A DNA stretch of 64,000 bases, taken from the NCBI RefSeq assembly GCF_000497125.1, contig NC_090598.1, positions 1-64,000 of the forward strand, given 5' to 3'. Source of the DNA: Spironucleus salmonicida (taxonomy: Eukaryota). A model generated the notes under the pieces. The model was not told the DNA's origin. It saw only the letters and a program-made list of their open reading frames with translations, and ran no database searches. Below, in pieces: positions 1 to 58,995 of the stretch (its first letter is position 1; the number at the start of each line of letters is the position of its first letter). A program made the translations under genes and the position numbers.

Positions 1-68
1 TATTACTATATTACTATATTACTATATTACTATATTACTATATTACTATATTTATTACTATATTATAA
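1..68. repeat. (TATTACTA)n 8-bp minisatellite, truncated by the window start
   Basis: Six perfect TATTACTA units at 1-48, then degenerate copies. Confidence 0.85.
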
Positions 69-5517: not shown

Positions 5518-5862
5518 TTAAGAAGGAAATAGGAAAGATGTAAAATATAATATATCAATATTATACATTAATGTAATATTATACTATGAATAAAAAACTC
5601 TACTTGCATTTATAATACATAATTTAATACATATTATAATTAATGAATGTTAAGCGTTTTACGAACTAAAAAGTATAAAATGAACTCGTGTAACTTTTCC
5701 ATCTGCCTTTAAGCACTAGTATGGAATTAATAATATACAATACTACTTAATTATTACGCATTATTAGTAAGTGTAGGAATTTCCTAAAAATACATTAGCT
5801 CATCCGCTATGCATGATCCCACGCATCCCTATCGTTACTAGATGCAATAAGTAGCATCTTCT

Positions 5863-8800
5863 GCTGACCTAGCTGCCCTCTAGTAAAACTCATCCTACGA
5901 GGCATCGTTACCATCTAACATTAATCCATCCCTATGCTTCTGTCTTAATAAACATACCGAGTGAGACTGCAGACTATCATTTTTGATAGATTATGCATCA
6001 TGCGGGTATTAAAGATAGAATACATGCAGTCTTCGGCATAGCCTGTGCTTGCATTACTAGTGAGAATAGCCTTCCTAGTGCTACTTTGTACCTGGGCTCA
6101 TAAGTGAATATATATTAGTAAGCATAGTAGTATATTATATAAATACAATAGTATATACTAAATATCCTTATAGGCACCACTCCCAATGCATACATACTAC
6201 TAAACTCCATTTAAGTTATTACTATATATACTATAGTATTGCATTGTCATCAATCACTATCCCAGTACCACTCACGCCTGCCTTGGTGCTGTCTATGGAA
6301 CTACTTGGGGTACCAGTACTAGTGGTACCCAGTTCAGTAGCAGCCAGCTATGCCAAATATGAAGGTTAAGCCATTATACACTATGCCAACAGCATCGACT
6401 CAGGCTCGTAGCACCAAAATGTGGAAGGCCTAAGCTAGCATAAGGTCAGTCCTGTTCTTAATAAATTACGGTATTGCTACCTCGCTGGGTCCTGAACACC
6501 AGCTAGCGCTATCTCGTCACCCTGATAGCCACACTCTCGCTGACCTCGCTTTGGCAAAACTCATCCTGCGAGTCGTCGTTACCATTTAAAACTCATCCAT
6601 CCCTATGCTTCTGTCTTAAGCAGCATACCGGGTGAGACTGCAGAGTATCATGTTTGATAGATTATGCATCATGCGGGTATTAAAGATAAAATACAAGCAG
6701 TCTTCGGCATAGCCTGTGCTTGTACTCTACAGGTAAGAATACCCTTCCTAGTGTACTGTGCACCTGGGCTCATAAGTGAATATATATTAGTAAGCATAGT
6801 AGTATATTCTATAAATACAATAGTATATACTAAATATCCTTACAAGCACCACTCCCAATGCATCTATACTACTAAACTCCATTTAAGCTATTACTATATA
6901 TACTATAGTATTGCATACTCATCAAGCACTATGCCAGTACCACTCACGCCTGCCTTAGCACTATCTATGGAAATACTTGGGGTAGCAGTACTAGTGGTGC
7001 CCACTTCAGTAGCAGATAGTTATTAAAGATAGAATATACAAACAGTCTTCGGCATAGCCTGTGCTTGTACTCTACAGGTAAGAATACCCTTCCTAGTGCT
7101 ACTTTGTACCTGGGCTCATAAGTGAATATGTATTAGTAAGCATAGTAGTATATTATATAAGTACAATAGTATATACTAAATATCCTTATAGGCACCACTC
7201 CCAATGCATATATACTACTAAACTCCAATTAAGATATTACTATATATACTATAGTATTGCATACTCATCAAGCACTATGCCAGTACCACTCACGCCTGCC
7301 TTAGCACTATCTATGGAAATACTTGGGGTACCAGTACTAGTGGTACCCAGTTCAGTAGCAGCCAGCTATGCCAAATATGAAGGTTAAGCCATTATACACT
7401 ATGCCAACAGCATCGACTCAGGCTCGTAGCACCAAAATGTGGAAGGCCTAAGCTAGCATAAGGTCAGTCCTGTTCTTAATAAATTATGATATTGCTACCT
7501 CGCTGGGTCCTGACCACCAGCTAGCGCTATCTCGTCACCCTGATAGCCACACTCTCGCTGACCTCGCTTTGGCAAAACTCATCCTGCGAGTCGTCGTTAC
7601 CATTTAAAACTCATCCATCCCTATGCTTCTGTCTTAAGCAGCATACCGGGTGAGACTGCAGAGTATCATGTTTGATAGATTATGCATCATGCGGGTATTA
7701 AAGATAAAATACAAGCAGTCTTCGGCATAGCCTGTGCTTGTACTCTACAGGTAAGAATACCCTTCCTAGTGTACTGTGCACCTGGGCTCATAAGTGAATA
7801 TGTATTAGTAAGCATAGTAGTATATTATATAAGTACAATAGTATATACTAAATATCCTTATAGGCACCACTCCCAATGCATATATACTACTAAACTCCAA
7901 TTAAGATATTACTATATATACTATAGTATTGCATTGTCATCAATCACTATGCCAGTACCACTCACGCCTGCCTTGGTGCTGTCTATGGAACTACTTGGGG
8001 TACCAGTACTAGTGGTACCCACTTCAGTAGCAGGCAGGTACTACACATAGAATATACAAGCAGTCTTCGGCATAGCCTGTGCTTGTACTCTACAGGTAAG
8101 AATACCCTTCCTAGTGTACTGTGCACCTGGGCTCATAAGTGAATATATATTAGTAAGCATAGTAGTATATTATATAAGTACAATAGTAATATACTAAATA
8201 TCCTTACAAGCACCACTCCCAATGCATATATACTACTAAACTCCAATTAAGATATTCCTATATATACTATAGTATTGTATACTCATCAAGCACTATCCCA
8301 GTACCACTCACGCCTGCCTTGGTGCTATCTATGGAACTACTTGGGGTCCAGTACTAGTGGTGCCCACTTCAGTAGCAGATAGTTATTAAAGATAGAATAT
8401 ACAAACAGTCTTCGGCATAGCCTGTGCTTGTACTCTACAGGTAAGAATACCCTTCCTAGTGTACTGTGCACCTGGGCTCATAAGTGAATATATATTAGTA
8501 AGCATAGTAGTATATTATATAAATACAATAGTATATACTAAATATCCTTACAAGCACCACTCCCAATGCATATATACTACTAAACTCCAATTAAGATATT
8601 ACTATATATACTATAGTATTGCATTGTCATCAAGCACTATCCCAGTACCACTCACGCCTGCCTTGGTGCTGTCTATGGAACTACTTGGGGTAGCAGTACT
8701 AGTGGTACCCACTTCAGTAGCAGGCAGGTACTACACATAGAATATACAAGCAGTCTTCGGCATAGCCTGTGCTTGTACTCTACAGGTAAGAATACCCTTC

Positions 8801-11800
8801 CTAGTGTACTGTGCACCTGGGCTCATAAGTGAATATATATTAGTAAGCATAGTAGTATATTATATAAATACAATAGTATATACTAAATATCCTTATAGGC
8901 ACCACTCCCAATGCATACATACTACTAAACTCCAATTAAGATATTACTATATATACTATAGTATTGCATTGTCATCAAGCACTACGGCAGTACCACTCAC
9001 GCCTGCCTTGGTGCTATCTATGGAACTACTTGGGGTCCAGTACTAGTGGTGCCCACTTCAGTAGCAGATAGTTATTAAAGATAGAATACAAACAGTCTTC
9101 GGCATAGCCTGTGCTTGTACTCTACAGGTAAGAATACCCTTCCTAGTGTACTGTGCACCTGGGCTCATAAGTGAATATATATTAGTAAGCATAGTAGTAT
9201 ATTATATAAATACAATAGTATATACTAAATATCCTTATAGGCACCACTCCCAATGCATACATACTACTAAACTCCATTTAAGTTATTACTATATATACTA
9301 TAGTATTGCATACTCATCAAGCACTACGCCAGTACCACTCATGCCTGCCTTGGTGCTATCTATGGAACTACTTGGGGTACCAGTACTGGTGGTACCCAGT
9401 TCAGTAGCAGCCAGCTATGCCAAATATGAAGGTTAAGCCATTATACACTATGCCAACAGCATCGACTCAGGCTCGTAGCACCAAAATGTGGAAGGCCTAA
9501 GCTAGCATAAGGTCAGTCCTGTTCTTAATAAATTATGATATTGCTACCTCGCTGGGTCCTGACCACCAGCTAGCGCTATCTCGTCACCCTGATAGCCACA
9601 CTCTCGCTGACCTCGCTTTGGCAAAACTCATCCTGCGAGTCGTCGTTACCATTTAAAACTCATCTATCCCTAGGCTTCTGTCTTAAGCAGCATACCGGGT
9701 GAGACTGCAGAGTATCATGTTTGATAGATTATGCATCATGCGGGTATTAAAGATAAAATACAAGCAGTCTTCGGCATAGCCTGTGCTTGCATTACTAGTG
9801 AGAATACCCTTCCTAGTGTACTGTGCACCTGGGCTCATAAGTGAATATATATTAGTAAGCATAGTAGTATATTCTATAAATACAATAGTATATACTAAAT
9901 ATCCTTACAAGCACCACTCCCAATGCATATATACTACTAAACTCCATTTAAGCTATTACTATATATACTATAGTATTGCATACTCATCAAGCACTATCCC
10001 AGTACCACTCACGCCTGCCTTGGTGCTATCTATGGAACTACTTGGGGTCCAGTACTAGTGGTGCCCACTTCAGTAGCAGATAGTTATTAAAGATAAAATA
10101 CAAGCAGTCTTCGGCATAGCCTGTGCTTGCATTACTAGTGAGAATAGCCTTCTTAGTGTACTTTGCACCTGGGCTCATAAGTGAATATATATTAGTAAGC
10201 ATAGTAGTATATTCTATAAATACAATAGTATATACTAAATATCCTTACAAGCACCACTCCCAATGCATATATACTACTAAACTCCATTTAAGCTATTACT
10301 ATATATACTATAGTATTGCATAATCATCAAGCACTATCCCAGTACCACTCCTGCCTACCTTAGCACTATCTATGGAAATACTTGGGGTACCAGTACTAGT
10401 GGTACCCAGTTCAGTAGCAGCCAGCTATGCCAAATATGAAGGTTAAGCCATTATACACTATGCCAACAGCATCGACTCAGGCTCGTAGCACCAAAATGTG
10501 GAAGGCCTAAGCTAGCATAAGGTCAGTCCTGTTCTTAATAAATTATGATATTGCTACCTCGCTGGGTCCTGACCACCAGCTAGCGCTATCTCGTCACCCT
10601 GATAGCCACACTCTCGCTGACCTCGCTTTGGCAAAACTCATCCTGCGAGTCGTCGTTACCATTTAAAACTCATCCATCCCTATGCTTCTGTCTTAAGCAG
10701 CATACCGGGTGAGACTGCAGAGTATCATGTTTGATAGATTATGCATCATGCGGGTATTAAAGATAAAATACAAGCAGTCTTCGGCATAGCCTGTGCTTGT
10801 ACTCTACAGGTAAGAATACCCTTCCTAGTGTACTGTGCACCTGGGCTCATAAGTGAATATGTATTAGTAAGCATAGTAGTATATTATATAAATACAATAG
10901 TATATACTAAATATCCTTACAAGCACCACTCCCAATGCATATATACTACTAAACTCCATTTAAGATATTACTATATATACTATAGTATTGTATACTCATC
11001 AAGCACTATCCCAGTACCACTCACGCCTGCCTTGGTGCTGTCTATGGAACTACTTGGGGTAGCAGTACTAGTGGTACCCACTTCAGTAGCAGGCAGGTAC
11101 TACACATAGAATATACAAACAGTCTTCGGCATAGCCTGTGCTTGTACTCTACAGGTAAGAATACCCTTCCTAGGCTACTGTGCACCTGGGCTCATAAGTG
11201 AATATATATTATTAAGGGTAGTAGTATATTCTATAAATACAATAGTATATACTAAATATCCTTATAGGCACCACTCCCAATGCATACATACTACTAAACT
11301 CCATTTAAGTTATTACTATATATACTATAGTATTGCATTGTCATCAATCACTATGCCAGTACCACTCACGCCTGCCTTGGTGCTGTCTATGGAACTACTT
11401 GGGGTCCAGTACTAGTGGTGCCCACTTCAGTAGCAGATAGTTATTAAAGATAGAATATACAAACAGTCTTCGGCATAGCCTGTGCTTGCATTACTAGTGA
11501 GAATAGCCTTCCTAGTGTACTGTGCACCTGGGCTCATAAGTGAATATATATTAGTAAGCATAGTAGTATATTATATAAATACAATAGTATATACTAAATA
11601 TCCTTATAGGCACCCACTCCCAATGCATATATACTACTAAACTCCAATTAAGATATTCCTATATATACTATAGTATTGCATTGTCATCAATCACTATCCC
11701 AGTACCACTCACGCCTGCCTTGGTGCTGTCTATGGAACTACTTGGGGTAGCAGTACTAGTGGTGCCCACTTCAGTAGCAGATAGTTATTAAAGATAGAAT

Positions 11801-14800
11801 ATACAAACAGTCTTCGGCATAGCCTGTGCTTGCATTACTAGTGAGAATAGCCTTCCTAGTGTACTGTGCACCTGGGCTCATAAGTGAATATATATTAGTA
11901 AGCATAGTAGTATATTATATAAATACAATAGTATATACTAAATATCCTTACAAGCACCACTCCCAATGCATACATACTACTAAACTCCATTTAAGTTATT
12001 ACTATATATACTATAGTATTGCATTGTCATCAAGCACTATCCCAGTACCACTCACGCCTGCCTTGGTGCTGTCTATGGAACTACTTGGGGTACCAGTACT
12101 AGTGGTACCCACTTCAGTAGCAGGCAGGTACTACACATAGAATATACAAACAGTCTTCGGCATAGCCTGTGCTTGTACTCTACAGGTAAGAATACCCTTC
12201 CTAGTGCTACTGTGTACCTGGGCTCATAAGTGAATATGTATTAGTAAGCATAGTAGTATATTATATAAATACAATAGTATATACTAAATATCCTTATAGG
12301 CACCACTCCCAATGCATACATACTACTAAACTCCATTTAAGTTATTACTATATATACTATAGTATTGCATTGTCATCAAGCACTACGGCAGTACCACTCA
12401 CGCCTACCTTAGCACTATCTATGGAAATACTTGGGGTACCAGTACTAGTGGTACCCAGTTCAGTAGCAGCCAGCTATGCCAAATATGAAGGTTAAGCCAT
12501 TATACACTATGCCAACAGCATCGACTCAGGCTCGTAGCACCAAAATGTGGAAGGCCTAAGCTAGCATAAGGTCAGTCCTGTTCTTAATAAATTACGGTAT
12601 TGCTACCTCGCTGGGTCCTGAACACCAGCTAGCGCTATCTCGTCACCCTGATAGCCACACTCTCGCTGACCTCGCTTTGGCAAAACTCATCCTGCGAGTC
12701 GTCGTTACCATTTAAAACTCATCCATCCCTATGCTTCTGTCTTAAGCAGCATACCGGGTGAGACTGCAGAGTATCATGTTTGATAGATTATGCATCATGC
12801 GGGTATTAAAGATAAAATACAAGCAGTCTTCGGCATAGCCTGTGCTTGCATTACTAGTGAGAATACCCTTCCTAGTGTACTGTGCACCTGGGCTCATAAG
12901 TGAATATATATTAGTAAGCATAGTAGTATATTCTATAAATACAATAGTATATACTAAATATCCTTACAAGCACCACTCCCAATGCATCTATACTACTAAA
13001 CTCCATTTAAGCTATTACTATATATACTATAGTATTGCATTGTCATCAATCACTATCCCAGTACCACTCACGCCTGCCTTAGCACTATCTATGGAAATAC
13101 TTGGGGTACCAGTACTAGTGGTACCCAGTTCAGTAGCAGCCAGCTATGCCAAATATGAAGGTTAAGCCATTATACACTATGCCAACAGCATCGACTCAGG
13201 CTCGTAGCACCAAAATGTGGAAGGCCTAAGCTAGCATAAGGTCAGTCCTGTTCTTAATAAATTATGATATTGCTACCTCGCTGGGTCCTGACCACCAGCT
13301 AGCGCTATCTCGTCACCCTGATAGCCACACTCTCGCTGACCTCGCTTTGGCAAAACTCATCCTGCGAGTCGTCGTTACCATTTAAAATTCATCCATCCCT
13401 ATGCTTCTGTCTTAAGCAGCATACCGGGTGAGACTGCAGAGTATCATGTTTGATAGATTATGCATCATGCGGGTATTAAAGATAAAATACAAGCAGTCTT
13501 CGGCATAGCCTGTGCTTGCATTACTAGTGAGAATACCCTTCCTAGTGTACTGTGCACCTGGGCTCATAAGTGAATATATATTAGTAAGTATAGTAGTATA
13601 TTATATAAATACAATAGTAATATACTAAATATCCTTACAAGCACCACTCCCAATGCATATATACTACTAAACTCCAATTAAGTTATTACTATATATACTA
13701 TAGTATTGCATACTCATCAAGCACTATCCCAGTACCACTCACGCCTACCTTAGCACTATCTATGGAAATACTTGGGGTCCAGTACTAGTGGTGCCCACTT
13801 CAGTAGCAGATAGTTATTAAAGATAGAATACAAACAGTCTTCGGCATAGCCTGTGCTTGTACTCTACAGGTAAGAATACCCTTCCTAGTGTACTGTGCAC
13901 CTGGGCTCATAAGTGAATATGTATTAGTAAGCATAGTAGTATATTATATAAGTACAATAGTAATATACTAAATATCCTTACAAGCACCACTCCCAATGCA
14001 TATATACTACTAAACTCCAATTAAGATATTACTATATATACTATAGTATTGCATTGTCATCAAGCACTATGCCAGTACCACTCATGCCTACCTTAGCACT
14101 ATCTATGGAAATACTTGGGGTACCAGTACTAGTGGTACCCAGTTCAGTAGCAGCCAGCTATGCCAAATATGAAGGTTAAGCCATTATACACTATGCCAAC
14201 AGCATCGACTCAGGCTCGTAGCACCAAAATGTGGAAGGCCTAAGCTAGCATAAGGTCAGTCCTGTTCTTAATAAATTACGGTATTGCTACCTCGCTGGGT
14301 CCTGAACACCAGCTAGCGCTATCTCGTCACCCTGATAGCCACACTCTCGCTGACCTCGCTTTGGCAAAACTCATCCTGCGAGTCGTCGTTACCATTTAAA
14401 ACTCATCCATCCCTATGCTTCTGTCTTAAGCAGCATACCGGGTGAGACTGCAGAGTATCATGTTTGATAGATTATGCATCATGCGGGTATTAAAGATAAA
14501 ATACAAGCAGTCTTCGGCATAGCCTGTGCTTGCATTACTAGTGAGAATACCCTTCCTAGTGTACTGTGCACCTGGGCTCATAAGTGAATATATATTAGTA
14601 AGTATAGTAGTATATTCTATAAGTACAATAGTATATACTAAATATCCTTACAAGCACCACTCCCAATGCATATATACTACTAAACTCCATTTAAGTTATT
14701 ACTATATATACTATAGTATTGCATTGTCATCAAGCACTACGGCAGTACCACTCACGCCTGCCTTGGTGCTATCTATGGAACTACTTGGGGTCCAGTACTA

Positions 14801-17800
14801 GTGGTGCCCAGTTCAGTAGCAGCCAGCTATGCCAAATATGAAGGTTAAGCCATTATACACTATGCCAACAGCATCGACTCAGGCTCGTAGCACCAAAATG
14901 TGGAAGGCCTAAGCTAGCATAAGGTCAGTCCTGTTCTTAATAAATTATGATATTGCTACCTCGCTGGGTCCTGACCACCAGCTAGCGCTATCTCGTCACC
15001 CTGATAGCCACACTCTCGCTGACCTCGCTTTGGCAAAACTCATCCTGCGAGTCGTCGTTACCATTTAAAACTCATCCATCCCTATGCTTCTGTCTTAAGC
15101 AGCATACCGGGTGAGACTGCAGAGTATCATGTTTGATAGATTATGCATCATGCGGGTATTAAAGATAAAATACAAGCAGTCTTCGGCATAGCCTGTGCTT
15201 GCATTACTAGTGAGAATACCCTTCTTAGTGTACTTTGCACCTGGGCTCATAAGTGAATATATATTAGTAAGCATAGTAGTATATTCTATAAATACAATAG
15301 TATATACTAAATATCCTTACAAGCACCACTCCCAATGCATATATACTACTAAACTCCAATTAAGATATTCCTATATATACTATAGTATTGTATACTCATC
15401 AAGCACTATCCCAGTACCACTCACGCCTGCCTTGGTGCTATCTATGGAACTACTTGGGGTCCAGTACTAGTGGTGCCCACTTCAGTAGCAGATAGTTATT
15501 AAAGATAGAATATACAAACAGTCTTCGGCATAGCCTGTGCTTGTACTCTACAGGTAAGAATACCCTTCCTAGTGTACTGTGCACCTGGGCTCATAAGTGA
15601 ATATATATTAGTAAGCATAGTAGTATATTATATAAATACAATAGTATATACTAAATATCCTTATAGGCACCACTCCCAATGCATACATACTACTAAACTC
15701 CATTTAAGTTATTACTATATATACTATAGTATTGCATTGTCATCAAGCACTACGGCAGTACCACTCACGCCTACCTTAGCACTATCTATGGAAATACTTG
15801 GGGTACCAGTACTAGTGGTACCCAGTTCAGTAGCAGCCAGCTATGCCAAATATGAAGGTTAAGCCATTATACACTATGCCAACAGCATCGACTCAGGCTC
15901 GTAGCACCAAAATGTGGAAGGCCTAAGCTAGCATAAGGTCAGTCCTGTTCTTAATAAATTATGATATTGCTACCTCGCTGGGTCCTGACCACCAGCTAGC
16001 GCTATCTCGTCACCCTGATAGCCACACTCTCGCTGACCTCGCTTTGGCAAAACTCATCCTGCGAGTCGTCGTTACCATTTAAAACTCATCCATCCCTATG
16101 CTTCTGTCTTAAGCAGCATACCGGGTGAGACTGCAGAGTATCATGTTTGATAGATTATGCATCATGCGGGTATTAAAGATAAAATACAAGCAGTCTTCGG
16201 CATAGCCTGTGCTTGCATTACTAGTGAGAATAGCCTTCCTAGTGTACTGTGCACCTGGGCTCATAAGTGAATATGTATTAGTAAGCATAGTAGTATATTA
16301 TATAAGTACAATAGTATATACTAAATATCCTTACAAGCACCACTCCCAATGCATATATACTACTAAACTCCAATTAAGATATTACTATATATACTATAGT
16401 ATTGCATACTCATCAAGCACTATGCCAGTACCACTCACGCCTGCCTTGGTGCTATCTATGGAACTACTTGGGGTCCAGTACTAGTGGTGCCCACTTCAGT
16501 AGCAGATAGTTATTAAAGATAGAATACAAACAGTCTTCGGCATAGCCTGTGCTTGTACTCTACAGGTAAGAATACCCTTCCTAGTGCTACTTTGTACCTG
16601 GGCTCATAAGTGAATATGTATTAGTAAGCATAGTAGTATATTATATAAGTACAATAGTATATACTAAATATCCTTACAAGCACCACTCCCAATGCATATA
16701 TACTACTAAACTCCAATTAAGATATTACTATATATACTATAGTATTGCATTGTCATCAATCACTATGCCAGTACCACTCACGCCTGCCTTAGCACTATCT
16801 ATGGAAATACTTGGGGTAGCAGTACTAGTGGTACCCACTTCAGTAGCAGATAGTTATTAAAGATAGAATACAAACAGTCTTCGGCATAGCCTGTGCTTGC
16901 ATTACTAGTGAGAATACCCTTCCTAGTGTACTGTGCACCTGGGCTCATAAGTGAATATATATTAGTAAGCATAGTAGTATATTCTATAAATACAATAGTA
17001 TATACTAAATATCCTTACAAGCACCACTCCCAATGCATATATACTACTAAACTCCAATTAAGATATTCCTATATATACTATAGTATTGTATACTCATCAA
17101 GCACTATCCCAGTACCACTCACGCCTGCCTTGGTGCTATCTATGGAACTACTTGGGGTCCAGTACTAGTGGTGCCCACTTCAGTAGCAGATAGTTATTAA
17201 AGATAGAATATACAAACAGTCTTCGGCATAGCCTGTGCTTGTACTCTACAGGTAAGAATACCCTTCCTAGTGTACTGTGCACCTGGGCTCATAAGTGAAT
17301 ATATATTAGTAAGCATAGTAGTATATTATATAAATACAATAGTATATACTAAATATCCTTATAGGCACCCACTCCCAATGCATATATACTACTAAACTCC
17401 AATTAAGATATTCCTATATATACTATAGTATTGCATTGTCATCAATCACTATCCCAGTACCACTCACGCCTGCCTTGGTGCTGTCTATGGAACTACTTGG
17501 GGTAGCAGTACTAGTGGTGCCCACTTCAGTAGCAGATAGTTATTAAAGATAGAATACAAACAGTCTTCGGCATAGCCTGTGCTTGTACTCTACAGGTAAG
17601 AATACCCTTCCTAGTGTACTGTGCACCTGGGCTCATAAGTGAATATGTATTAGTAAGCATAGTAGTATATTATATAAATACAATAGTAATATACTAAATA
17701 TCCTTATAGGCACCACTCCCAATGCATACATACTACTAAACTCCATTTAAGTTATTACTATATATACTATAGTATTGCATTGTCATCAAGCACTATGCCA

Positions 17801-20800: not shown

Positions 20801-23800
20801 GACCTCGCTTTGGCAAAACTCATCCTGCGAGTCGTCGTTACCATTTAAAACTCATCCATCCCTATGCTTCTGTCTTAAGCAGCATACCGGGTGAGACTGC
20901 AGAGTATCATGTTTGATAGATTATGCATCATGCGGGTATTAAAGATAAAATACAAGCAGTCTTCGGCATAGCCTGTGCTTGTACTCTACAGGTAAGAATA
21001 CCCTTCTTAGTGCTACTGTGCACCTGGGCTCATAAGTGAATATGTATTAGTAAGCATAGTAGTATATTATATAAGTACAATAGTATATACTAAATATCCT
21101 TACAAGCACCACTCCCAATGCATATATACTACTAAACTCCAATTAAGATATTACTATATATACTATAGTATTGCATACTCATCAAGCACTATGCCAGTAC
21201 CACTCACGCCTACCTTAGCACTATCTATGGAAATACTTGGGGTAGCAGTACTAGTGGTACCCACTTCAGTAGCAGATAGTTATTAAAGATAGAATATACA
21301 AACAGTCTTCGGCATAGCCTGTGCTTGTACTCTACAGGTAAGAATACCCTTCCTAGTGTACTGTGCACCTGGGCTCATAAGTGAATATATATTAGTAAGC
21401 ATAGTAGTATATTCTATAAATACAATAGTATATACTAAATATCCTTACAAGCACCACTCCCAATGCATATATACTACTAAACTCCAATTAAGATATTACT
21501 ATATATACTATAGTATTGCATACTCATCAAGCACTATGCCAGTACCACTCACGCCTACCTTAGCACTATCTATGGAAATACTTGGGGTAGCAGTACTAGT
21601 GGTACCCACTTCAGTAGCAGATAGTTATTAAAGATAGAATATACAAACAGTCTTCGGCATAGCCTGTGCTTGTACTCTACAGGTAAGAATACCCTTCCTA
21701 GTGCTACTTTGTACCTGGGCTCATAAGTGAATATGTATTAGTAAGCATAGTAGTATATTATATAAGTACAATAGTATATACTAAATATCCTTATAGGCAC
21801 CACTCCCAATGCATATATACTACTAAACTCCAATTAAGATATTACTATATATACTATAGTATTGCATTGTCATCAATCACTATGCCAGTACCACTCACGC
21901 CTGCCTTGGTGCTGTCTATGGAACTACTTGGGGTCCAGTACTAGTGGTGCCCACTTCAGTAGCAGATAGTTATTAAAGATAGAATATACAAACAGTCTTC
22001 GGCATAGCCTGTGCTTGTACTCTACAGGTAAGAATACCCTTCCTAGTGTACTGTGCACCTGGGCTCATAAGTGAATATGTATTAGTAAGCATAGTAGTAT
22101 ATTATATAAATACAATAGTATATACTAAATATCCTTATAGGCACCACTCCCAATGCATACATACTACTAAACTCCATTTAAGTTATTACTATATATACTA
22201 TAGTATTGCATTGTCATCAATCACTATGCCAGTACCACTCACGCCTGTCTTGGTGCTGTCTATGGAACTACTTGGGGTACCAGTACTAGTGGTACCCACT
22301 TCAGTAGCAGGCAGGTACTACACATAGAATATACAAACAGTCTTCGGCATAGCCTGTGCTTGTACTCTACAGGTAAGAATACCCTTCCTAGTGCTACTGT
22401 GTACCTGGGCTCATAAGTGAATATGTATTAGTAAGCATAGTAGTATATTATATAAATACAATAGTATATACTAAATATCCTTATAGGCACCACTCCCAAT
22501 GCATACATACTACTAAACTCCATTTAAGTTATTACTATATATACTATAGTATTGCATACTCATCAAGCACTATGCCAGTACCACTCACGCCTGCCTTAGC
22601 ACTATCTATGGAAATACTTGGGGTAGCAGTACTAGTGGTGCCCACTTCAGTAGCAGATAGTTATTAAAGATAGAATATACAAACAGTCTTCGGCATAGCC
22701 TGTGCTTGTACTCTACAGGTAAGAATACCCTTCCTAGTGCTACTGTGTACCTGGGCTCATAAGTGAATATATATTAGTAAGCATAGTAGTATATTATATA
22801 AATACAATAGTAATATACTAAATATCCTTACAAGCACCACTCCCAATGCATATATACTACTAAACTCCAATTAAGATATTACTATATATACTATAGTATT
22901 GCATACTCATCAAGCACTATGCCAGTACCACTCACGCCTGCCTTGGTGCTGTCTATGGAACTACTTGGGGTACCAGTACTAGTGGTACCCACTTCAGTAG
23001 CAGCCAGCTATGCCAAATATGAAGGTTAAGCCATTATACACTATGCCAACAGCATCGACTCAGGCTCGTAGCACCAAAATGTGGAAGGCCTAAGCTAGCA
23101 TAAGGTCAGTCCTGTTCTTAATAAATTACGGTATTGCTACCTCGCTGGGTCCTGAACACCAGCTAGCGCTATCTCGTCACCCTGATAGCCACACTCTCGC
23201 TGACCTCGCTTTGGCAAAACTCATCCTGCGAGTCGTCGTTACCATTTAAAACTCATCCATCCCTATGCTTCTGTCTTAAGCAGCATACCGGGTGAGACTG
23301 CAGAGTATCATGTTTGATAGATTATGCATCATGCGGGTATTAAAGATAAAATACAAGCAGTCTTCGGCATAGCCTGTGCTTGCATTACTAGTGAGAATAC
23401 CCTTCCTAGTGTACTGTGCACCTGGGCTCATAAGTGAATATATATTAGTAAGTATAGTAGTATATTCTATAAGTACAATAGTATATACTAAATATCCTTA
23501 CAAGCACCACTCCCAATGCATATATACTACTAAACTCCATTTAAGTTATTACTATATATACTATAGTATTGCATTGTCATCAAGCACTACGGCAGTACCA
23601 CTCACGCCTACCTTAGCACTATCTATGGAAATACTTGGGGTCCAGTACTAGTGGTGCCCAGTTCAGTAGCAGCCAGCTATGCCAAATATGAAGGTTAAGC
23701 CATTATACACTATGCCAACAGCATCGACTCAGGCTCGTAGCACCAAAATGTGGAAGGCCTAAGCTAGCATAAGGTCAGTCCTGTTCTTAATAAATTATGA

Positions 23801-26800
23801 TATTGCTACCTCGCTGGGTCCTGACCACCAGCTAGCGCTATCTCGTCACCCTGATAGCCACACTCTCGCTGACCTCGCTTTGGCAAAACTCATCCTGCGA
23901 GTCGTCGTTACCATTTAAAACTCATCCATCCCTATGCTTCTGTCTTAAGCAGCATACCGGGTGAGACTGCAGAGTATCATGTTTGATAGATTATGCATCA
24001 TGCGGGTATTAAAGATAAAATACAAGCAGTCTTCGGCATAGCCTGTGCTTGTACTCTACAGGTAAGAATACCCTTCTTAGTGCTACTGTGCACCTGGGCT
24101 CATAAGTGAATATATATTAGTAAGCATAGTAGTATATTATATAAATACAATAGTATATACTAAATATCCTTACAAGCACCACTCCCAATGCATACATACT
24201 ACTAAACTCCATTTAAGTTATTACTATATATACTATAGTATTGCATTGTCATCAATCACTATGCCAGTACCACTCACGCCTGCCTTGGTGCTGTCTATGG
24301 AACTACTTGGGGTCCAGTACTAGTGGTGCCCACTTCAGTAGCAGATAGTTATTAAAGATAGAATATACAAACAGTCTTCGGCATAGCCTGTGCTTGTACT
24401 CTACAGGTAAGAATACCCTTCCTAGTGTACTGTGCACCTGGGCTCATAAGTGAATATATATTAGTAAGCATAGTAGTATATTATATAAATACAATAGTAT
24501 ATACTAAATATCCTTATAGGCACCCACTCCCAATGCATATATACTACTAAACTCCAATTAAGATATTCCTATATATACTATAGTATTGTATACTCATCAA
24601 GCACTATCCCAGTACCACTCACGCCTGCCTTGGTGCTATCTATGGAACTACTTGGGGTCCAGTACTAGTGGTGCCCACTTCAGTAGCAGATAGTTATTAA
24701 AGATAGAATACAAACAGTCTTCGGCATAGCCTGTGCTTGTACTCTACAGGTGAGAATACCCTTCCTAGTGTACTGTGCACCTGGGCTCATAAGTGAATAT
24801 GTATTAGTAAGCATAGTAGTATATTATATAAGTACAATAGTAATATACTAAATATCCTTATAGGCACCCACTCCCAATGCATATATACTACTAAACTCCA
24901 ATTAAGATATTACTATATATACTATAGTATTGTATACTCATCAAGCACTATCCCAGTACCACTCACGCCTGCCTTGGTGCTGTCTATGGAACTACTTGGG
25001 GTACCAGTACTAGTGGTACCCACTTTAGTAGCAGGCAGCTATGCCAAATATGAAGGTTAAGCCATTATACACTATGCCAACAGCATCGACTCAGGCTCGT
25101 AGCACCAAAATGTGGAAGGCCTAAGCTAGCATAAGGTCAGTCCTGTTCTTAATAAATTACGGTATTGCTACCTCGCTGGGTCCTGAACACCAGCTAGCGC
25201 TATCTCGTCACCCTGATAGCCACACTCTCGCTGACCTCGCTTTGGCAAAACTCATCCTGCGAGTCGTCGTTACCATTTAAAACTCATCCATCCCTATGCT
25301 TCTGTCTTAAGCAGCATACCGGGTGAGACTGCAGAGTATCATGTTTGATAGATTATGCATCATGCGGGTATTAAAGATAAAATACAAGCAGTCTTCGGCA
25401 TAGCCTGTGCTTGTACTCTACAGGTAAGAATACCCTTCCTAGTGTACTGTGCACCTGGGCTCATAAGTGAATATATATTAGTAAGCATAGTAGTATATTC
25501 TATAAATACAATAGTATATACTAAATATCCTTACAAGCACCACTCCCAATGCATCTATACTACTAAACTCCATTTAAGCTATTACTATATATACTATAGT
25601 ATTGCATTGTCATCAATCACTATCCCAGTACCACTCACGCCTGCCTTAGCACTATCTATGGAAATACTTGGGGTACCAGTACTAGTGGTACCCAGTTCAG
25701 TAGCAGCCAGCTATGCCAAATATGAAGGTTAAGCCATTATACACTATGCCAACAGCATCGACTCAGGCTCGTAGCACCAAAATGTGGAAGGCCTAAGCTA
25801 GCATAAGGTCAGTCCTGTTCTTAATAAATTACGGTATTGCTACCTCGCTGGGTCCTGAACACCAGCTAGCGCTATCTCGTCACCCTGATAGCCACACTCT
25901 CGCTGACCTCGCTTTGGCAAAACTCATCCTGCGAGTCGTCGTTACCATTTAAAACTCATCCATCCTTATGCTTCTGTCTTAAGCAGCATACCGGGTGAGA
26001 CTGCAGAGTATCATGTTTGATAGATTATGCATCATGCGGGTATTAAAGATAAAATACAAGCAGTCTTCGGCATAGCCTGTGCTTGTACTCTACAGGTAAG
26101 AATACCCTTCCTAGTGCTACTTTGTACCTGGGCTCATAAGTGAATATGTATTAGTAAGCATAGTAGTATATTATATAAGTACAATAGTATATACTAAATA
26201 TCCTTATAGGCACCACTCCCAATGCATATATACTACTAAACTCCAATTAAGATATTACTATATATACTATAGTATTGCATACTCATCAAGCACTATCCCA
26301 GTACCACTCACGCCTGCCTTGGTGCTATCTATGGAACTACTTGGGGTCCAGTACTAGTGGTGCCCACTTCAGTAGCAGATAGTTATTAAAGATAGAATAC
26401 AAACAGTCTTCGGCATAGCCTGTGCTTGTACTCTACAGGTAAGAATACCCTTCCTAGTGCTACTTTGTACCTGGGCTCATAAGTGAATATGTATTAGTAA
26501 GCATAGTAGTATATTATATAAGTACAATAGTATATACTAAATATCCTTATAGGCACCACTCCCAATGCATATATACTACTAAACTCCAATTAAGATATTA
26601 CTATATATACTATAGTATTGCATACTCATCAAGCACTATGCCAGTACCACTCACGCCTGCCTTAGCACTATCTATGGAAATACTTGGGGTAGCAGTACTA
26701 GTGGTGCCCACTTCAGTAGCAGATAGTTATTAAAGATAAAATACAAGCAGTCTTCGGCATAGCCTGTGCTTGCATTACTAGTGAGAATAGCCTTCCTAGT

Positions 26801-29800
26801 GCTACTTTGTACCTGGGCTCATAAGTGAATATGTATTAGTAAGCATAGTAGTATATTATATAAGTACAATAGTATATACTAAATATCCTTATAGGCACCA
26901 CTCCCAATGCATATATACTACTAAACTCCAATTAAGATATTACTATATATACTATAGTATTGCATACTCATCAAGCACTATGCCAGTACCACTCACGCCT
27001 GCCTTAGCACTATCTATGGAACTACTTGGGGTCCAGTACTAGTGGTGCCCACTTCAGTAGCAGATAGTTATTAAAGATAGAATACAAACAGTCTTCGGCA
27101 TAGCCTGTGCTTGTACTCTACAGGTAAGAATACCCTTCCTAGTGCTACTTTGTACCTGGGCTCATAAGTGAATATGTATTAGTAAGCATAGTAGTATATT
27201 ATATAAGTACAATAGTATATACTAAATATCCTTATAGGCACCACTCCCAATGCATATATACTACTAAACTCCAATTAAGATATTACTATATATACTATAG
27301 TATTGCATACTCATCAAGCACTATGCCAGTACCACTCACGCCTGCCTTAGCACTATCTATGGAAATACTTGGGGTAGCAGTACTAGTGGTGCCCACTTCA
27401 GTAGCAGATAGTTATTAAAGATAAAATACAAGCAGTCTTCGGCATAGCCTGTGCTTGCATTACTAGTGAGAATAGCCTTCCTAGTGCTACTTTGTACCTG
27501 GGCTCATAAGTGAATATATATTAGTAAGCATAGTAGTATATTCTATAAATACAATAGTATATACTAAATATCCTTACAAGCACCACTCCCAATGCATATA
27601 TACTACTAAACTCCAATTAAGATATTCCTATATATACTATAGTATTGCATACTCATCAAGCACTATCCCAGTACCACTCACGCCTGCCTTGGTGCTGTCT
27701 ATGGAACTACTTGGGGTCCAGTACTAGTGGTGCCCACTTCAGTAGCAGATAGTTATTAAAGATAAAATACAAGCAGTCTTCGGCATAGCCTGTGCTTGCA
27801 TTACTAGTGAGAATAGCCTTCCTAGTGCTACTTTGTACCTGGGCTCATAAGTGAATATGTATTAGTAAGCATAGTAGTATATTATATAAGTACAATAGTA
27901 TATACTAAATATCCTTATAGGCACCACTCCCAATGCATATATACTACTAAACTCCAATTAAGATATTACTATATATACTATAGTATTGCATACTCATCAA
28001 GCACTATGCCAGTACCACTCACGCCTGCCTTAGCACTATCTATGGAACTACTTGGGGTCCAGTACTAGTGGTGCCCACTTCAGTAGCAGATAGTTATTAA
28101 AGATAGAATACAAACAGTCTTCGGCATAGCCTGTGCTTGTACTCTACAGGTAAGAATACCCTTCCTAGTGCTACTTTGTACCTGGGCTCATAAGTGAATA
28201 TGTATTAGTAAGCATAGTAGTATATTATATAAGTACAATAGTATATACTAAATATCCTTATAGGCACCACTCCCAATGCATATATACTACTAAACTCCAA
28301 TTAAGATATTACTATATATACTATAGTATTGCATACTCATCAAGCACTATGCCAGTACCACTCACGCCTGCCTTAGCACTATCTATGGAAATACTTGGGG
28401 TAGCAGTACTAGTGGTGCCCACTTCAGTAGCAGATAGTTATTAAAGATAAAATACAAGCAGTCTTCGGCATAGCCTGTGCTTGCATTACTAGTGAGAATA
28501 GCCTTCCTAGTGCTACTTTGTACCTGGGCTCATAAGTGAATATATATTAGTAAGCATAGTAGTATATTCTATAAATACAATAGTATATACTAAATATCCT
28601 TACAAGCACCACTCCCAATGCATATATACTACTAAACTCCAATTAAGATATTCCTATATATACTATAGTATTGCATACTCATCAAGCACTATCCCAGTAC
28701 CACTCACGCCTGCCTTGGTGCTGTCTATGGAACTACTTGGGGTAGCAGTACTAGTGGTGCCCACTTCAGTAGCAGATAGTTATTAAAGATAGAATACAAA
28801 CAGTCTTCGGCATAGCCTGTGCTTGTACTCTACAGGTAAGAATACCCTTCCTAGTGCTACTTTGTACCTGGGCTCATAAGTGAATATGTATTAGTAAGCA
28901 TAGTAGTATATTATATAAATACAATAGTATATACTAAATATCCTTACAAGCACCACTCCCAATGCATATATACTACTAAACTCCAATTAAGATATTACTA
29001 TATATACTATAGTATTGCATTGTCATCAATCACTATCCCAGTACCACTCACGCCTGCCTTGGTGCTATCTATGGAACTACTTGGGGTCCAGTACTAGTGG
29101 TGCCCACTTCAGTAGCAGATAGTTATTAAAGATAGAATATACAAACAGTCTTCGGCATAGCCTGTGCTTGTACTCTACAGGTAAGAATACCCTTCCTAGT
29201 GTACTGTGCACCTGGGCTCATAAGTGAATATATATTAGTAAGCATAGTAGTATATTATATAAATACAATAGTATATACTAAATATCCTTATAGGCACCCA
29301 CTCCCAATGCATATATACTACTAAACTCCAATTAAGATATTCCTATATATACTATAGTATTGTATACTCATCAAGCACTATCCCAGTACCACTCACGCCT
29401 GCCTTGGTGCTATCTATGGAACTACTTGGGGTCCAGTACTAGTGGTGCCCACTTCAGTAGCAGATAGTTATTAAAGATAGAATACAAACAGTCTTCGGCA
29501 TAGCCTGTGCTTGTACTCTACAGGTAAGAATACCCTTCCTAGTGCTACTTTGTACCTGGGCTCATAAGTGAATATGTATTAGTAAGCATAGTAGTATATT
29601 ATATAAGTACAATAGTAATATACTAAATATCCTTACAAGCACCACTCCCAATGCATATATACTACTAAACTCCAATTAAGATATTACTATATATACTATA
29701 GTATTGCATACTCATCAAGCACTATGCCAGTACCACTCACGCCTGCCTTGGTGCTGTCTATGGAACTACTTGGGGTACCAGTACTAGTGGTACCCACTTC

Positions 29801-32800
29801 AGTAGCAGCCAGCTATGCCAAATATGAAGGTTAAGCCATTATACACTATGCCAACAGCATCGACTCAGGCTCGTAGCACCAAAATGTGGAAGGCCTAAGC
29901 TAGCATAAGGTCAGTCCTGTTCTTAATAAATTACGGTATTGCTACCTCGCTGGGTCCTGAACACCAGCTAGCGCTATCTCGTCACCCTGATAGCCACACT
30001 CTCGCTGACCTCGCTTTGGCAAAACTCATCCTGCGAGTCGTCGTTACCATTTAAAACTCATCCATCCCTATGCTTCTGTCTTAAGCAGCATACCGGGTGA
30101 GACTGCAGAGTATCATGTTTGATAGATTATGCATCATGCGGGTATTAAAGATAAAATACAAGCAGTCTTCGGCATAGCCTGTGCTTGCATTACTAGTGAG
30201 AATACCCTTCCTAGTGTACTGTGCACCTGGGCTCATAAGTGAATATATATTAGTAAGTATAGTAGTATATTCTATAAGTACAATAGTATATACTAAATAT
30301 CCTTACAAGCACCACTCCCAATGCATATATACTACTAAACTCCATTTAAGTTATTACTATATATACTATAGTATTGCATTGTCATCAAGCACTACGGCAG
30401 TACCACTCACGCCTACCTTAGCACTATCTATGGAAATACTTGGGGTACCAGTACTAGTGGTACCCAGTTCAGTAGCAGCCAGCTATGCCAAATATGAAGG
30501 TTAAGCCATTATACACTATGCCAACAGCATCGACTCAGGCTCGTAGCACCAAAATGTGGAAGGCCTAAGCTAGCATAAGGTCAGTCCTGTTCTTAATAAA
30601 TTACGGTATTGCTACCTCGCTGGGTCCTGAACACCAGCTAGCGCTATCTCGTCACCCTGATAGCCACACTCTCGCTGACCTCGCTTTGGCAAAACTCATC
30701 CTGCGAGTCGTCGTTACCATTTAAAACTCATCCATCCCTATGCTTCTGTCTTAAGCAGCATACCGGGTGAGACTGCAGAGTATCATGTTTGATAGATTAT
30801 GCATCATGCGGGTATTAAAGATAAAATACAAGCAGTCTTCGGCATAGCCTGTGCTTGCATTACTAGTGAGAATAGCCTTCTTAGTGTACTTTGCACCTGG
30901 GCTCATAAGTGAATATATATTAGTAAGCATAGTAGTATATTATATAAATACAATAGTAATATACTAAATATCCTTACAAGCACCACTCCCAATGCATATA
31001 TACTACTAAACTCCAATTAAGATATTACTATATATACTATAGTATTGCATTGTCATCAAGCACTATGCCAGTACCACTCATGCCTACCTTAGCACTATCT
31101 ATGGAAATACTTGGGGTACCAGTACTAGTGGTACCCAGTTCAGTAGCAGCCAGCTATGCCAAATATGAAGGTTAAGCCATTATACACTATGCCAACAGCA
31201 TCGACTCAGGCTCGTAGCACCAAAATGTGGAAGGCCTAAGCTAGCATAAGGTCAGTCCTGTTCTTAATAAATTACGGTATTGCTACCTCGCTGGGTCCTG
31301 AACACCAGCTAGCGCTATCTCGTCACCCTGATAGCCACACTCTCGCTGACCTCGCTTTGGCAAAACTCATCCTGCGAGTCGTCGTTACCATTTAAAACTC
31401 ATCCATCCCTATGCTTCTGTCTTAAGCAGCATACCGGGTGAGACTGCAGAGTATCATGTTTGATAGATTATGCATCATGCGGGTATTAAAGATAAAATAC
31501 AAGCAGTCTTCGGCATAGCCTGTGCTTGCATTACTAGTGAGAATAGCCTTCTTAGTGTACTTTGCACCTGGGCTCATAAGTGAATATATATTAGTAAGCA
31601 TAGTAGTATATTATATAAATACAATAGTATATACTAAATATCCTTACAAGCACCACTCCCAATGCATATATACTACTAAACTCCAATTAAGATATTACTA
31701 TATATACTATAGTATTGCATTGTCATCAATCACTATCCCAGTACCACTCACGCCTGCCTTGGTGCTATCTATGGAACTACTTGGGGTCCAGTACTAGTGG
31801 TGCCCACTTCAGTAGCAGATAGTTATTAAAGATAGAATACAAACAGTCTTCGGCATAGCCTGTGCTTGTACTCTACAGGTAAGAATACCCTTCCTAGTGT
31901 ACTGTGCACCTGGGCTCATAAGTGAATATGTATTAGTAAGCATAGTAGTATATTATATAAATACAATAGTATATACTAAATATCCTTACAAGCACCACTC
32001 CCAATGCATATATACTACTAAACTCCAATTAAGATATTACTATATATACTATAGTATTGCATACTCATCAAGCACTATGCCAGTACCACTCACGCCTGCC
32101 TTAGCACTATCTATGGAAATACTTGGGGTAGCAGTACTAGTGGTACCCACTTCAGTAGCAGATAGTTATTAAAGATAGAATACAAACAGTCTTCGGCATA
32201 GCCTGTGCTTGCATTACTAGTGAGAATACCCTTCTTAGTGTACTGTGCACCTGGGCTCATAAGTGAATATGTATTAGTAAGCATAGTAGTATATTATATA
32301 AATACAATAGTATATACTAAATATCCTTACAAGCACCACTCCCAATGCATATATACTACTAAACTCCAATTAAGATATTACTATATATACTATAGTATTG
32401 CATTGTCATCAATCACTATGCCAGTACCACTCACGCCTGCCTTGGTGCTGTCTATGGAACTACTTGGGGTCCAGTACTAGTGGTGCCCACTTCAGTAGCA
32501 GATAGTTATTAAAGATAGAATACAAACAGTCTTCGGCATAGCCTGTGCTTGTACTCTACAGGTAAGAATACCCTTCCTAGTGCTACTTTGTACCTGGGCT
32601 CATAAGTGAATATGTATTAGTAAGCATAGTAGTATATTATATAAGTACAATAGTAATATACTAAATATCCTTACAAGCACCACTCCCAATGCATATATAC
32701 TACTAAACTCCAATTAAGATATTACTATATATACTATAGTATTGTATACTCATCAAGCACTATCCCAGTACCACTCACGCCTGCCTTGGTGCTGTCTATG

Positions 32801-34036
32801 GAACTACTTGGGGTACCAGTACTAGTGGTACCCAGTTCAGTAGCAGCCAGCTATGCCAAATATGAAGGTTAAGCCATTATACACTATGCCAACAGCATCG
32901 ACTCAGGCTCGTAGCACCAAAATGTGGAAGGCCTAAGCTAGCATAAGGTCAGTCCTGTTCTTAATAAATTACGGTATTGCTACCTCGCTGGGTCCTGAAC
33001 ACCAGCTAGCGCTATCTCGTCACCCTGATAGCCACACTCTCGCTGACCTCGCTTTGGCAAAACTCATCCTGCGAGTCGTCGTTACCATTTAAAACTCATC
33101 CATCCCTATGCTTCTGTCTTAAGCAGCATACCGGGTGAGACTGCAGAGTATCATGTTTGATAGATTATGCATCATGCGGGTATTAAAGATAAAATACATG
33201 CAGTCTTCGGCATAGCCTGTGCTTGCATTACTAGTGAGAATACCCTTCCTAGTGTACTTTGTACCTGGGCTCATAAGTGAATATATATTAGTAAGCATAG
33301 TAGTATATTATATAAATACAATAGTATATACTAAATATCCTTACAAGCACCACTCCCAATGCATATATACTACTAAACTCCAATTAAGATATTACTATAT
33401 ATACTATAGTATTGCATTGTCATCAATCACTATCCCAGTACCACTCACGCCTGCCTTGGTGCTATCTATGGAACTACTTGGGGTCCAGTACTAGTGGTGC
33501 CCACTTCAGTAGCAGATAGTTATTAAAGATAGAATACAAACAGTCTTCGGCATAGCCTGTGCTTGTACTCTACAGGTAAGAATACCCTTCCTAGTGTACT
33601 GTGCACCTGGGCTCATAAGTGAATATATATTAGTAAGCATAGTAGTATATTATATAAATACAATAGTATATACTAAATATCCTTACAAGCACCACTCCCA
33701 ATGCATATATACTACTAAACTCCAATTAAGATATTACTATATATACTATAGTATTGCATACTCATCAAGCACTATGCCAGTACCACTCATGCCTACCTTA
33801 GCACTATCTATGGAAATACTTGGGGTACCAGTACTAGTGGTACCCAGTTCAGTAGCAGCCAGCTATGCCAAATATGAAGGTTAAGCCATTATACACTATG
33901 CCAACAGCATCGACTCAGGCTCGTAGCACCAAAATGTGGAAGGCCTAAGCTAGCATAAGGTCAGTCCTGTTCTTAATAAATTACGGTATTGCTACCTCGC
34001 TGGGTCCTGAACACCAGCTAGCGCTATCTCGTCACC
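5863..34036. repeat. 28-kb two-module tandem array (A ~336-345 bp x ~62; B ~334 bp x 21)
   Basis: A runs from tattaaagata...cagtcttcggcatagcc to ttcagtagcag. B runs from ccagctatgccaaatatgaagg to attatgcatcatgcggg. B starts at ~6344, 7362, 9411, 10421, 12470, 13140, 14154, 14823, 15837, 17880, 19584, 20603, 23004, 23673, 25036, 25707, 29809, 30479, 31150, 32847 and 33859. Confidence 0.97.
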
Positions 34037-43966: not shown

Positions 43967-44020
43967 TTTTAATGAAAAGTATAATATAATAAATATCATA
44001 ACTAATAAAAAAGAAAATGA

Positions 44021-46399: not shown

Positions 46400-46480
46400 A
46401 ATTTTGAAATTTGAAGCGAATTATATTCCACACTATTATATATTATATACAATAGTGTTCCCATCTCACTATAATGTTAG

Positions 46481-52964: not shown

Positions 52965-53594
52965 TTTTCATACTTTTAAAATTACTAAATAATATATATT
53001 TTTACTTTTAAAAGAAATATTTAATGATTTTTTAATTATGTTTATAGATGGTATAAGCAGATATTAACTAGAGACATGTCTGTATTCTACTCTAATCATC
53101 AGTCAAACTGTTGTTCCTATACTTAATATAACAATCATATTGAATATGTTTTACATTTTTCTATTTAATTGAAGAAATTTTCCTTAAGTTTTAACTACAA
53201 ATATTTAAGGTAATTGAAGTAAGATAAATAGTTTTTCATTTATATTCAATGTAATTTTGGTATGGATTGCAAAATAGTAGATATGATAAATAGTCATAAA
53301 ATAAATTTTTAAGGTCAATTATATTTATTTATTATTCGATCTTAATACTTTCCAATAATTTACTGTTAGCATTGTTTAAAATATTATTTATAACAAACGT
53401 AAAAATATTTATAAGAAGACATTAAATTACAAATTCATTAAATATGTTATAACAATAGCTGCAAAAGATAGAGTATTAAACATTAAATGAATTAATAATA
53501 ATAAACTATATTAATATATATGTATATTAAAACTAATAATTAATCATACATAAGTATATATTTTTCATATATATAATTGATATTTTGCAAATAA

Positions 53595-58924: not shown

Positions 58925-58995
58925 TTTTGTAATCAATATTTGTATTGTATCATAATATCAAATTAATTTGTTACAGTAAACAACAAATGGTTTTA

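Follow-up and report, generated by a model that had tools for sequence, protein, structure and literature searches.

The DNA analysed here, referred to as the window, comprises 64,000 nucleotides from Spironucleus salmonicida, a hexamitid diplomonad parasitic in fish (assembly GCF_000497125.1, contig NC_090598.1, positions 1 to 64,000, forward strand) and represents the left end of contig C3. It contains a tandem array of two repeat units, A and B, which lies inward of a long gene that reads towards the telomere. The genes flanking the array are long and without introns when translated with code 6, in which TAA and TAG encode glutamine. The A units are mosaics of shared alleles, probably the outcome of ordinary homologous exchange in an expanded array. 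The features of this chromosome end, from the contig terminus inwards, are:

1..52, + strand: (TATTACTA)n tract at the left contig end; the canonical (CCTA)n telomere is not reached, and the same 8-mer tract is also present at the C1 and C2 right ends
187..5568, − strand: telomere-facing open reading frame (ORF) of 1,793 amino acids in code 6
5569..5884, no strand assigned: conserved spacer, presumed promoter of the ORF, part of a 541-bp stretch identical to one at the C8 left end
5885..6005, + strand: diverged (~90%) 3′ part of B, as found at the start of every array
6006..33858, + strand: 62 A units (~343 bp) and 20 whole B units, with 28 variable blocks and a mean of 17.6 differing columns
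6344..6670, + strand: first B unit, 327 bp
26693..28743, + strand: exact 1,025-bp tandem duplication covering three A units (26693–27717 is identical to 27719–28743)
33859..34047, + strand: 5′ half of B at the close of the array, continuing into the inner flank, the same ending as in 18 of 22 arrays
34031..35600, no strand assigned: inner flank, common to 8 other modules with 87–97% identity over 0.5–1.57 kb

The array as a whole (5885/6006–34047 on the + strand) consists of 62 A units and 21 B starts, 20 of which are whole B units of 327 bp. An A unit is made up of a core of 313–318 bp and a linker of 27 or 29 bp. The two units alternate in an irregular AnB order, in which BB never occurs. 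Two types of A-A linker are present in the window, ATAG (35 copies) and GCAGG (6 copies), the latter being commoner at other ends. Every A unit carries an imperfect hairpin near its end, GGGTACCA...TGGTACCC (6309–6332 in the window), with two arm alleles that covary, and an allele G, also near the end of A, is followed by B in 18/18 cases (p = 7e-13). In the window array, B hardly varies (2.0 differences), with two main haplotypes and three sites that are perfectly linked in 20/20 copies; genome-wide it is as diverse as A (17.5 differences of 330), and at other ends it is mosaic. The spacer is mosaic too. The telomere words TAGG and CCTA occur 0 times in A, and CCTA occurs twice in B. Such words are common, but not universal, within the units of subtelomeric compound satellites.

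Alignment of the A cores revealed 51 variable columns, with pairs of cores differing on average at 17.6 of them. These columns merge into 28 blocks in which the second allele is found in at least three copies, or into 35 sites on a finer split. The original prediction, made from the letters alone, had described the units as reassorted combinations of ~24 sites with two or three alleles each; that count is slightly low, and the allele pairs it quoted are present in the alignment tables. The mosaic of shared alleles itself is confirmed by the alignment, by the four-gamete test and by a statistic resembling the pairwise homoplasy index (PHI). All four gametes were observed for 481 of 595 pairs of sites, including 25 of the 51 pairs at most 15 bp apart and 39 of the 60 pairs separated by 16–30 bp, so that alleles are indeed reassorted even over ~10–30 bp. 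The Hudson-Kaplan minimum is 19 breakpoints in 34 intervals. Linkage, expressed as the squared correlation between alleles (r2), declines from.230 through.110,.071,.056,.037 and.028 to.019 between the 1–15 and 181–320 bp classes (1/n =.016); it is still dropping out to 300 bp and does not reach a plateau. Permutation gave p = 0.0005, both for the decay of r2 and for the PHI-like statistic. Recombination among the A copies is thus supported.

The units are also nearly unique, as had been claimed, since 58 of the 62 A cores are distinct; there are five identical pairs and 13 near-identical pairs. Private changes are rare, although not abnormally so: 7 singleton columns were counted in the window compared to a neutral expectation of 9.7, and 14 compared to 14.4 among 299 units genome-wide. 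One of the examples put forward as private, at 22247, is unique, but those at 10321 (24/299 units) and 11171–11220 (29–54/299) are common at other ends. Nothing points to a function of the units as barcodes; ordinary exchange accounts for the mosaic.

The genome contains 22 such arrays, with 1–75 A units each. Of the 18 end regions of the nine largest contigs, 15 carry the repeat, as do two small contigs, and its polarity is the same throughout. They are embedded in a module with a fixed order, namely the (CCTA)n telomere where the assembly extends to it, the telomere-facing gene, the spacer, the A/B array and an inner flank, which comes in two types. The first A anchor lies 461–463 bp from the ATG of the gene in 14 of 22 modules. 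The end regions and the two small contigs account for 300 A anchors, compared to 306 found genome-wide with a slightly different pattern; the repeat is essentially confined to chromosome ends. The array was absent from the stretches examined at C4 left (20 kb), C6 right (20 kb) and C9 right (576–606 kb). C3, C4, C5, C6 and C9 carry a large array at a single end only, C2, C7 and C8 have no large array within the stretches examined, and several ends carry just 1–2 units. Large arrays are thus only partly one per chromosome.

The modules may also be stacked head to tail, with four at C1 left (C1:3149–47539) and two at C6 left (C6:3486–42406), which resembles the tandem arrangement of Y′ elements. 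Where (CCTA)n is missing from an end or near-end region, (TATTACTA)n or AT tracts of the (TATAA) type, several kb long, are present (C1R, C2R, C2L, C4L, C6R, C9L and C4R). These tracts may represent another class of terminal or interstitial repeat.

The alleles of the window are drawn from a pool that spans these ends. We aligned 299 A units, 62 from the window and 237 from elsewhere, leaving one truncated unit (C9 left) out of the 300. All window alleles except three (two singletons and one doubleton) were found at other ends. The window alleles are therefore a subset of a genome-wide pool, and not a fixed private template set as originally proposed. At least five extant units were required to cover them. 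Genome-wide, some spots carry 4–5 alleles, and one 14-bp patch has intermediates at other ends. Alleles are widely common between ends, with fixation indices (Fst) of 0.01–0.66; the window array is closest to the C5 right array of 75 units (Fst 0.03) and differs more from the others (0.16–0.55). The arrays at C7R, C23, C4R and C9L are far more uniform. Five of six short arrays with 4–6 A units contain 31–55 variable columns, and the sixth only 1, compared to 51 in the window. Since such short arrays already hold this many columns, and since the window B has two main haplotypes, it is plausible that the local founders were few. The part of the original prediction that specified two or three founders fares less well at its lower bound, because simulations with two founders gave 22–30 variable columns instead of 51 and because some sites have three alleles. 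In addition, a sequencing run labelled with another organism (X9) contained two 151-base pieces that match 6080–6192 and 6490–6640 at 95–99%, too little for use; their allele combination is known from eight other ends and is absent from the window array.

Our preferred reading, which we regard as probably correct overall, is that a seed array grew and that ordinary exchange in register reshuffled its units, within the module at the chromosome end. A diverged copy of the 3′ part of B opens every array, and the 5′ part closes 18 of 22, which suggests that the array would have been born from a single B3′-A-B5′ stretch through two nested duplications (671 bp for AB and 343 bp for A). The ~300 extant copies would constitute one slowly mixed pool near mutation-drift balance. 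The window array may have grown from a short seed of ~3–6 A units and 1–2 B units, which would leave alleles at intermediate frequencies and few new mutations. In-register homologous exchange (through unequal exchange between sisters, conversion with long tracts or break-induced replication), with tract lengths of ~300 bp (100–1,600) and breakpoints anywhere in the unit, would then assemble the patchwork in several rounds. Rare alleles would come from the occasional tract donated by another end, and the identity of individual units would be a by-product.

The simulations and the longest exact matches are consistent with tracts of this size. The prediction had called for an estimate of tract length, and simulation yielded ~300 bp with a range of 100–1,600. 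In equilibrium runs, 30- or 100-bp tracts abolished linkage beyond 15–30 bp, and 0/40 replicates reached either the observed r2 at 16–80 bp or the 13 near-identical pairs, with pools of 62, 140 or 300 units. A neutral model brackets the data (r2 decay, four-gamete share, number of distinct units and number of near-identical pairs) with tracts of 200–400 bp for N=62, 400–800 bp for N=140 and 800–1,600 bp for N=300. Among founder models (10 replicates each), the best fit was obtained with 300-bp tracts, 3–5 founders and 4–8 overwrites per site, and those with 30-bp tracts mostly fit worse. Models with founders as the only source of variation produced 0–3 rare columns, compared to 8 observed, of which five are alleles of other ends. 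In the array itself, an 839-bp block is repeated 6.8 kb away, identical whole units occur 4.8 kb apart and exact blocks free of B measure 295–508 bp. In the gene and spacer, four exact patches (541, 482, 440 and 420 bp) each match a different end, and the nearest paralogue of the telomere-facing gene switches every 300–900 bp. Tight shuffling does not imply short tracts, since the breakpoints of long events accumulate.

Several observations nevertheless weigh against this reading or limit it. The simulations are crude, in that they model A alone, keep copy number fixed and the rate uniform, and comprise 10–40 replicates; there is also a trade-off between tract length and pool size. With 100-bp tracts, the fit of the founder models is almost as good as with 300 bp (sum of squares 0.55–0.96 and 0.18–0.68, respectively), and one 30-bp founder model fits r2 (sum of squares 0.49) but gives only 28 variable columns. 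The longest exact matches are biased towards long events. Middle-frequency alleles are in excess, with a Tajima's D of +1.95 that is inflated by multi-column alleles and lies off the equilibrium value. Even at a spacing of 3 bp, every gamete is present (37/17/4/4), which hints at some short patches or at patchy mismatch repair. Neighbouring A units are no closer to each other than distant ones (16–19 differences at all lags), and linkage between sites on either side of a unit border is close to 1/n beyond 120 bp; blocks of several units would therefore be uncommon. Finally, the comparison with sequencing reads described below was a site-by-site test with read-derived contigs aligned to 5000–6690 (776 pieces from run X1 and 527 from run X3 on 1.7 kb), and whole-unit phase lies outside its reach.

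The reading originally proposed, very frequent gene conversion with short tracts (tens of bases) among two or three founder templates, draws on some of the same evidence. The abundance of four-gamete pairs within 15 bp, the reassortment at 3 bp and the weak linkage across unit borders are what it would predict; moreover, three random units from other ends average 41 variable columns, and simulation from three founders and 100-bp tracts yields 60 distinct units together with 13 near-identical pairs. We consider it unlikely, given that equilibrium runs with short tracts failed in all 40 replicates, that r2 declines to 300 bp without a plateau, that two founders or founders alone fall short of the observed variable and rare columns, and that exact blocks of 300–1,025 bp are present. 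The proposal that exchange among copies generated the mosaic stands, but not short tracts as the main process, and "very frequent" is not required, as 2–8 overwrites per site suffice in the founder models and a single genome gives no per-generation rate. A short-patch component may act beside long tracts, and crossover and long conversion are indistinguishable here. Recurrent template switching at short palindromes could instead remake the same alleles without exchange between copies, and the hairpin near the end of A, with its covarying arms, together with the existence of multi-base alleles, gives this idea a starting point. For 10 multi-base allele words, however, a search of both strands of A, B and the flanks turned up no template longer than 8–9 bases elsewhere, homoplasy provides no distance-dependent linkage, and the 14-bp patch has its intermediates elsewhere. 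Template switching is already largely refuted by the decay of linkage and we give it almost no credence as the general explanation; it may explain one or two sites. Selected diversification, as a centromere-type or protein-binding satellite, as a repertoire of transcribed RNA or as a device against collapse of the array, also seems improbable. Large arrays at one end only on five contigs, the positive Tajima's D and five near-invariant stretches of 9–15 bp in the 299 units are compatible with it, as is the length of A, which is about two nucleosome lengths, satellite units often being near multiples of the nucleosome length. Against it, neutral simulations reproduce the pattern, arrays of 1–2 units exist, C2, C7 and C8 are without a large array in the stretches examined, no fold signal was detected (z −0.37 and −1.47) and the C7R, C23, C4R and C9L arrays are far more uniform.

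An assembly artefact was considered, in which polishing would have mixed the alleles of near-identical copies and so created mosaics that do not exist. One S. salmonicida assembly was built from low-accuracy long reads polished with Quiver and Pilon (PMC9509377, in excerpt), which makes the concern reasonable for assemblies of this type, and each B contains two NheI sites (42 in the array), which renders NheI optical maps uninformative on array length. The runs X1 and X3 derive from one sample, possibly the window's own. Only per-site contig counts were used; the total of 776 was not, since the assembly graphs of the flank and B alone yield 667 pieces, and the share of words present in X1 (0.68) is matched by 3–5 units and does not discriminate. 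The alternative allele at 6193 was found in 21 (X1) and 20 (X3) contigs, where three units could give a maximum of 9 and five units 12; at 6254, it was found in 23 and 15, with maxima of 8 and 13. The excess at 6137 and 6210 is small (8/13 and 8/7, compared to 5–12 and 5–6). The original prediction had named reads with only a few non-recombinant haplotypes as its counter-evidence; at 6193 and 6254, 15–23 read-derived contigs carry the alternative allele, compared to at most 8–13 from 3–5 haplotypes. Further, averaging is at odds with the strict association of allele G with a following B (18/18), the linkage of the three B sites (20/20), the small number of error-like singletons, array-specific frequencies and identical units 4.8 kb apart. 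A polishing origin of the mosaic is unlikely, and we assign this explanation a very low probability.

The A/B array is a non-coding compound subtelomeric satellite, of the kind represented by the HAR-CDEF and Sultan repeats discussed below. A coding role for A was rejected because its best + frame has 31/90 synonymous changes, compared to 17–25/~90 in the others, and because indel alleles break the frame; A core lengths fall into all three modulo-3 classes (80/108/111). Overall, the synonymous share is 19–34% in the A frames and 23–29% in the B frames. No tRNA or Rfam match was obtained for A or B, and the RNA fold z-scores given above (−0.37 for A and −1.47 for B) refer to the + strand only; a tandem array of RNA genes was rejected in the absence of an Rfam family and a stable fold. 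Cassettes for antigenic variation were likewise rejected, in view of frameshifting alleles, the lack of a clear synonymous bias and the failure to find a longer host gene with the unit. Telomeric non-LTR retrotransposons are known from Giardia (GilM and GilT). Such an element was dismissed here, as the linked ORF has no reverse transcriptase match and the inner flank (34031–35600) contains no convincing ORF. Pieces of run X5, presumed to be RNA, map to the ORF, A and B and leave 5513–5740 uncovered, which is evidence neither way on transcription. One stretch of A unit and B start, 33513–33884 (+), has no stop over 123 codons even under the standard code, and many of its codons have A in the last position; it is a possible trace of an old gene. 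By analogy with other systems, the likeliest role of the array would be that of a heterochromatic boundary or silencing element and a recombination substrate upstream of the telomere-facing gene, an assignment we offer tentatively.

The telomere-facing gene belongs to a family of proteins of 1,500–1,870 amino acids, encoded at nearly all chromosome ends and reading towards the telomere. The ORF at 187..5568 (−) is itself a patchwork of paralogues. It contains the motifs SQSSKSGKS and ILVDE, which we take to be Walker-A-like and Walker-B-like, respectively; in 22 aligned members, S-S-x-S-G-K is invariant and DE nearly so. A Pfam search with the protein and the 22 aligned members gave no DEAD, Helicase_C or other relevant match, and a sequence search of the PDB with the linked protein gave no match. 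Structure models had mean pLDDT values of 51.5 and 50.2 and were unreliable at the Walker-like motifs. Foldseek found nothing for the first model at E 0.001, with weak APOBEC-fold matches at E 0.15–0.7, and a wide fold search with the same model returned helical hairpins only (Z up to 7.5 over 52–53 residues). Identity as a TLH or Y′ helicase is not supported, since RecQ/SF2 domains are not detected by sequence. All 19 family matches (lengths 986–3138) are labelled S. salmonicida. Among 1.84 billion sequences there were eight representatives, one of which (P0144) was located in the same genome. Relatives outside S. salmonicida were not found in the sequence searches, in which P0141–P0143 and P0145 were taken without an individual check. 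From these searches, the family appears to be species-restricted.

A second subfamily, of the P0144 type, is 26–30% identical and has both subtelomeric and internal copies, some of them as inverted pairs on C6. At the C3 right end, a copy of the gene is split into frames of 1,050 and 804 amino acids.

The parasites Plasmodium (TARE/rep20) and Trypanosoma brucei (50/70-bp repeats) also have non-coding arrays in their subtelomeres, variable in length and located upstream of genes linked to the telomere. The S. salmonicida units are longer, and the linked gene encodes no known antigen. A closer parallel is offered by Magnaporthe oryzae, where the TLH region includes a compound HAR-CDEF array, a layout to which yeast X-STR plus Y′ has been likened (PMC1635262, in excerpt). 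In both systems, a gene at most ends reads towards the telomere, with a compound array upstream that borders inner sequence; some ends share an inner region and one unit contains an imperfect palindrome. The distance between array and gene is short and fixed, at 181 bp in Magnaporthe and about 440–460 bp here. The S. salmonicida array differs in its units of ~330–345 bp, in reaching 28–36 kb, in the absence of telomere words from A, in a linked gene without RecQ, DEAD or Helicase_C match and in the tandem stacking of modules. According to the same excerpt, TLH genes are found in fungi only.

The Sultan and Spacer repeats of Chlamydomonas reinhardtii are similarly species-specific, present at most ends, fixed in polarity and accompanied by a conserved flank, and copies within an end are closer to each other than copies from different ends; unequal sister exchange and break-induced replication have been proposed for them (PMC8287924, in excerpt). 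Sultan adjoins the telomere and has one unit type, whereas here a 5-kb gene intervenes and there are two units, with alleles widely common between ends (Fst as given above). The pseudo-VSP arrays of Giardia muris are also polarised tandem arrays at diplomonad ends shaped by recombination or segmental conversion, but they are pseudogene donors for surface antigens, and A and B have neither a coding signature nor an expression site (PMC7641422, in excerpt).

The excerpted S. salmonicida assembly paper describes the ends as gene-poor, GC-richer and more variable, and suggests conversion (PMC9509377). The array is not mentioned in the portions consulted of PMC3916229, PMC1805757 and PMC7641422, and no description of it was found in the literature searched, which included few subscription papers and did not extend to the supplements of PMC9509377. 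The array is thus apparently undescribed, although the process is ordinary for subtelomeric repeats. Within that literature, this would be the first description of the standard chromosome end of S. salmonicida. It offers direct evidence, from sequence, that homologous exchange takes place both within ends and between them, along with an approximate tract size, in a group in which little is known about recombination. As most units can be told apart, they are practical markers for exchange rates in serial clones and for strain typing.

The item of most real interest is the telomere-linked gene family. More speculatively, the module could be a Y′/TLH-like telomere-linked element that evolved independently outside fungi, with a putative, lineage-specific NTPase-like gene acting in end maintenance or in its own spread; array length (1–75 units) would then tune silencing, and the largest arrays would possibly be telocentric centromeres. 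We regard this proposal as doubtful. If it were true, the mosaic units would be a built-in recorder of recombination between ends and between the two diplomonad nuclei.

The genes located further inward in the window are all on the − strand. They encode a 1,807-residue ankyrin-repeat protein (38576–43999), a DnaJ protein (44021–45247) with its nearest match in Hexamita inflata (65%), a cyclin (45371–46400), a 520-residue ResIII/DEAD/Helicase_C protein (51405–52967) and a SHIPPO-repeat protein (58250–58957).

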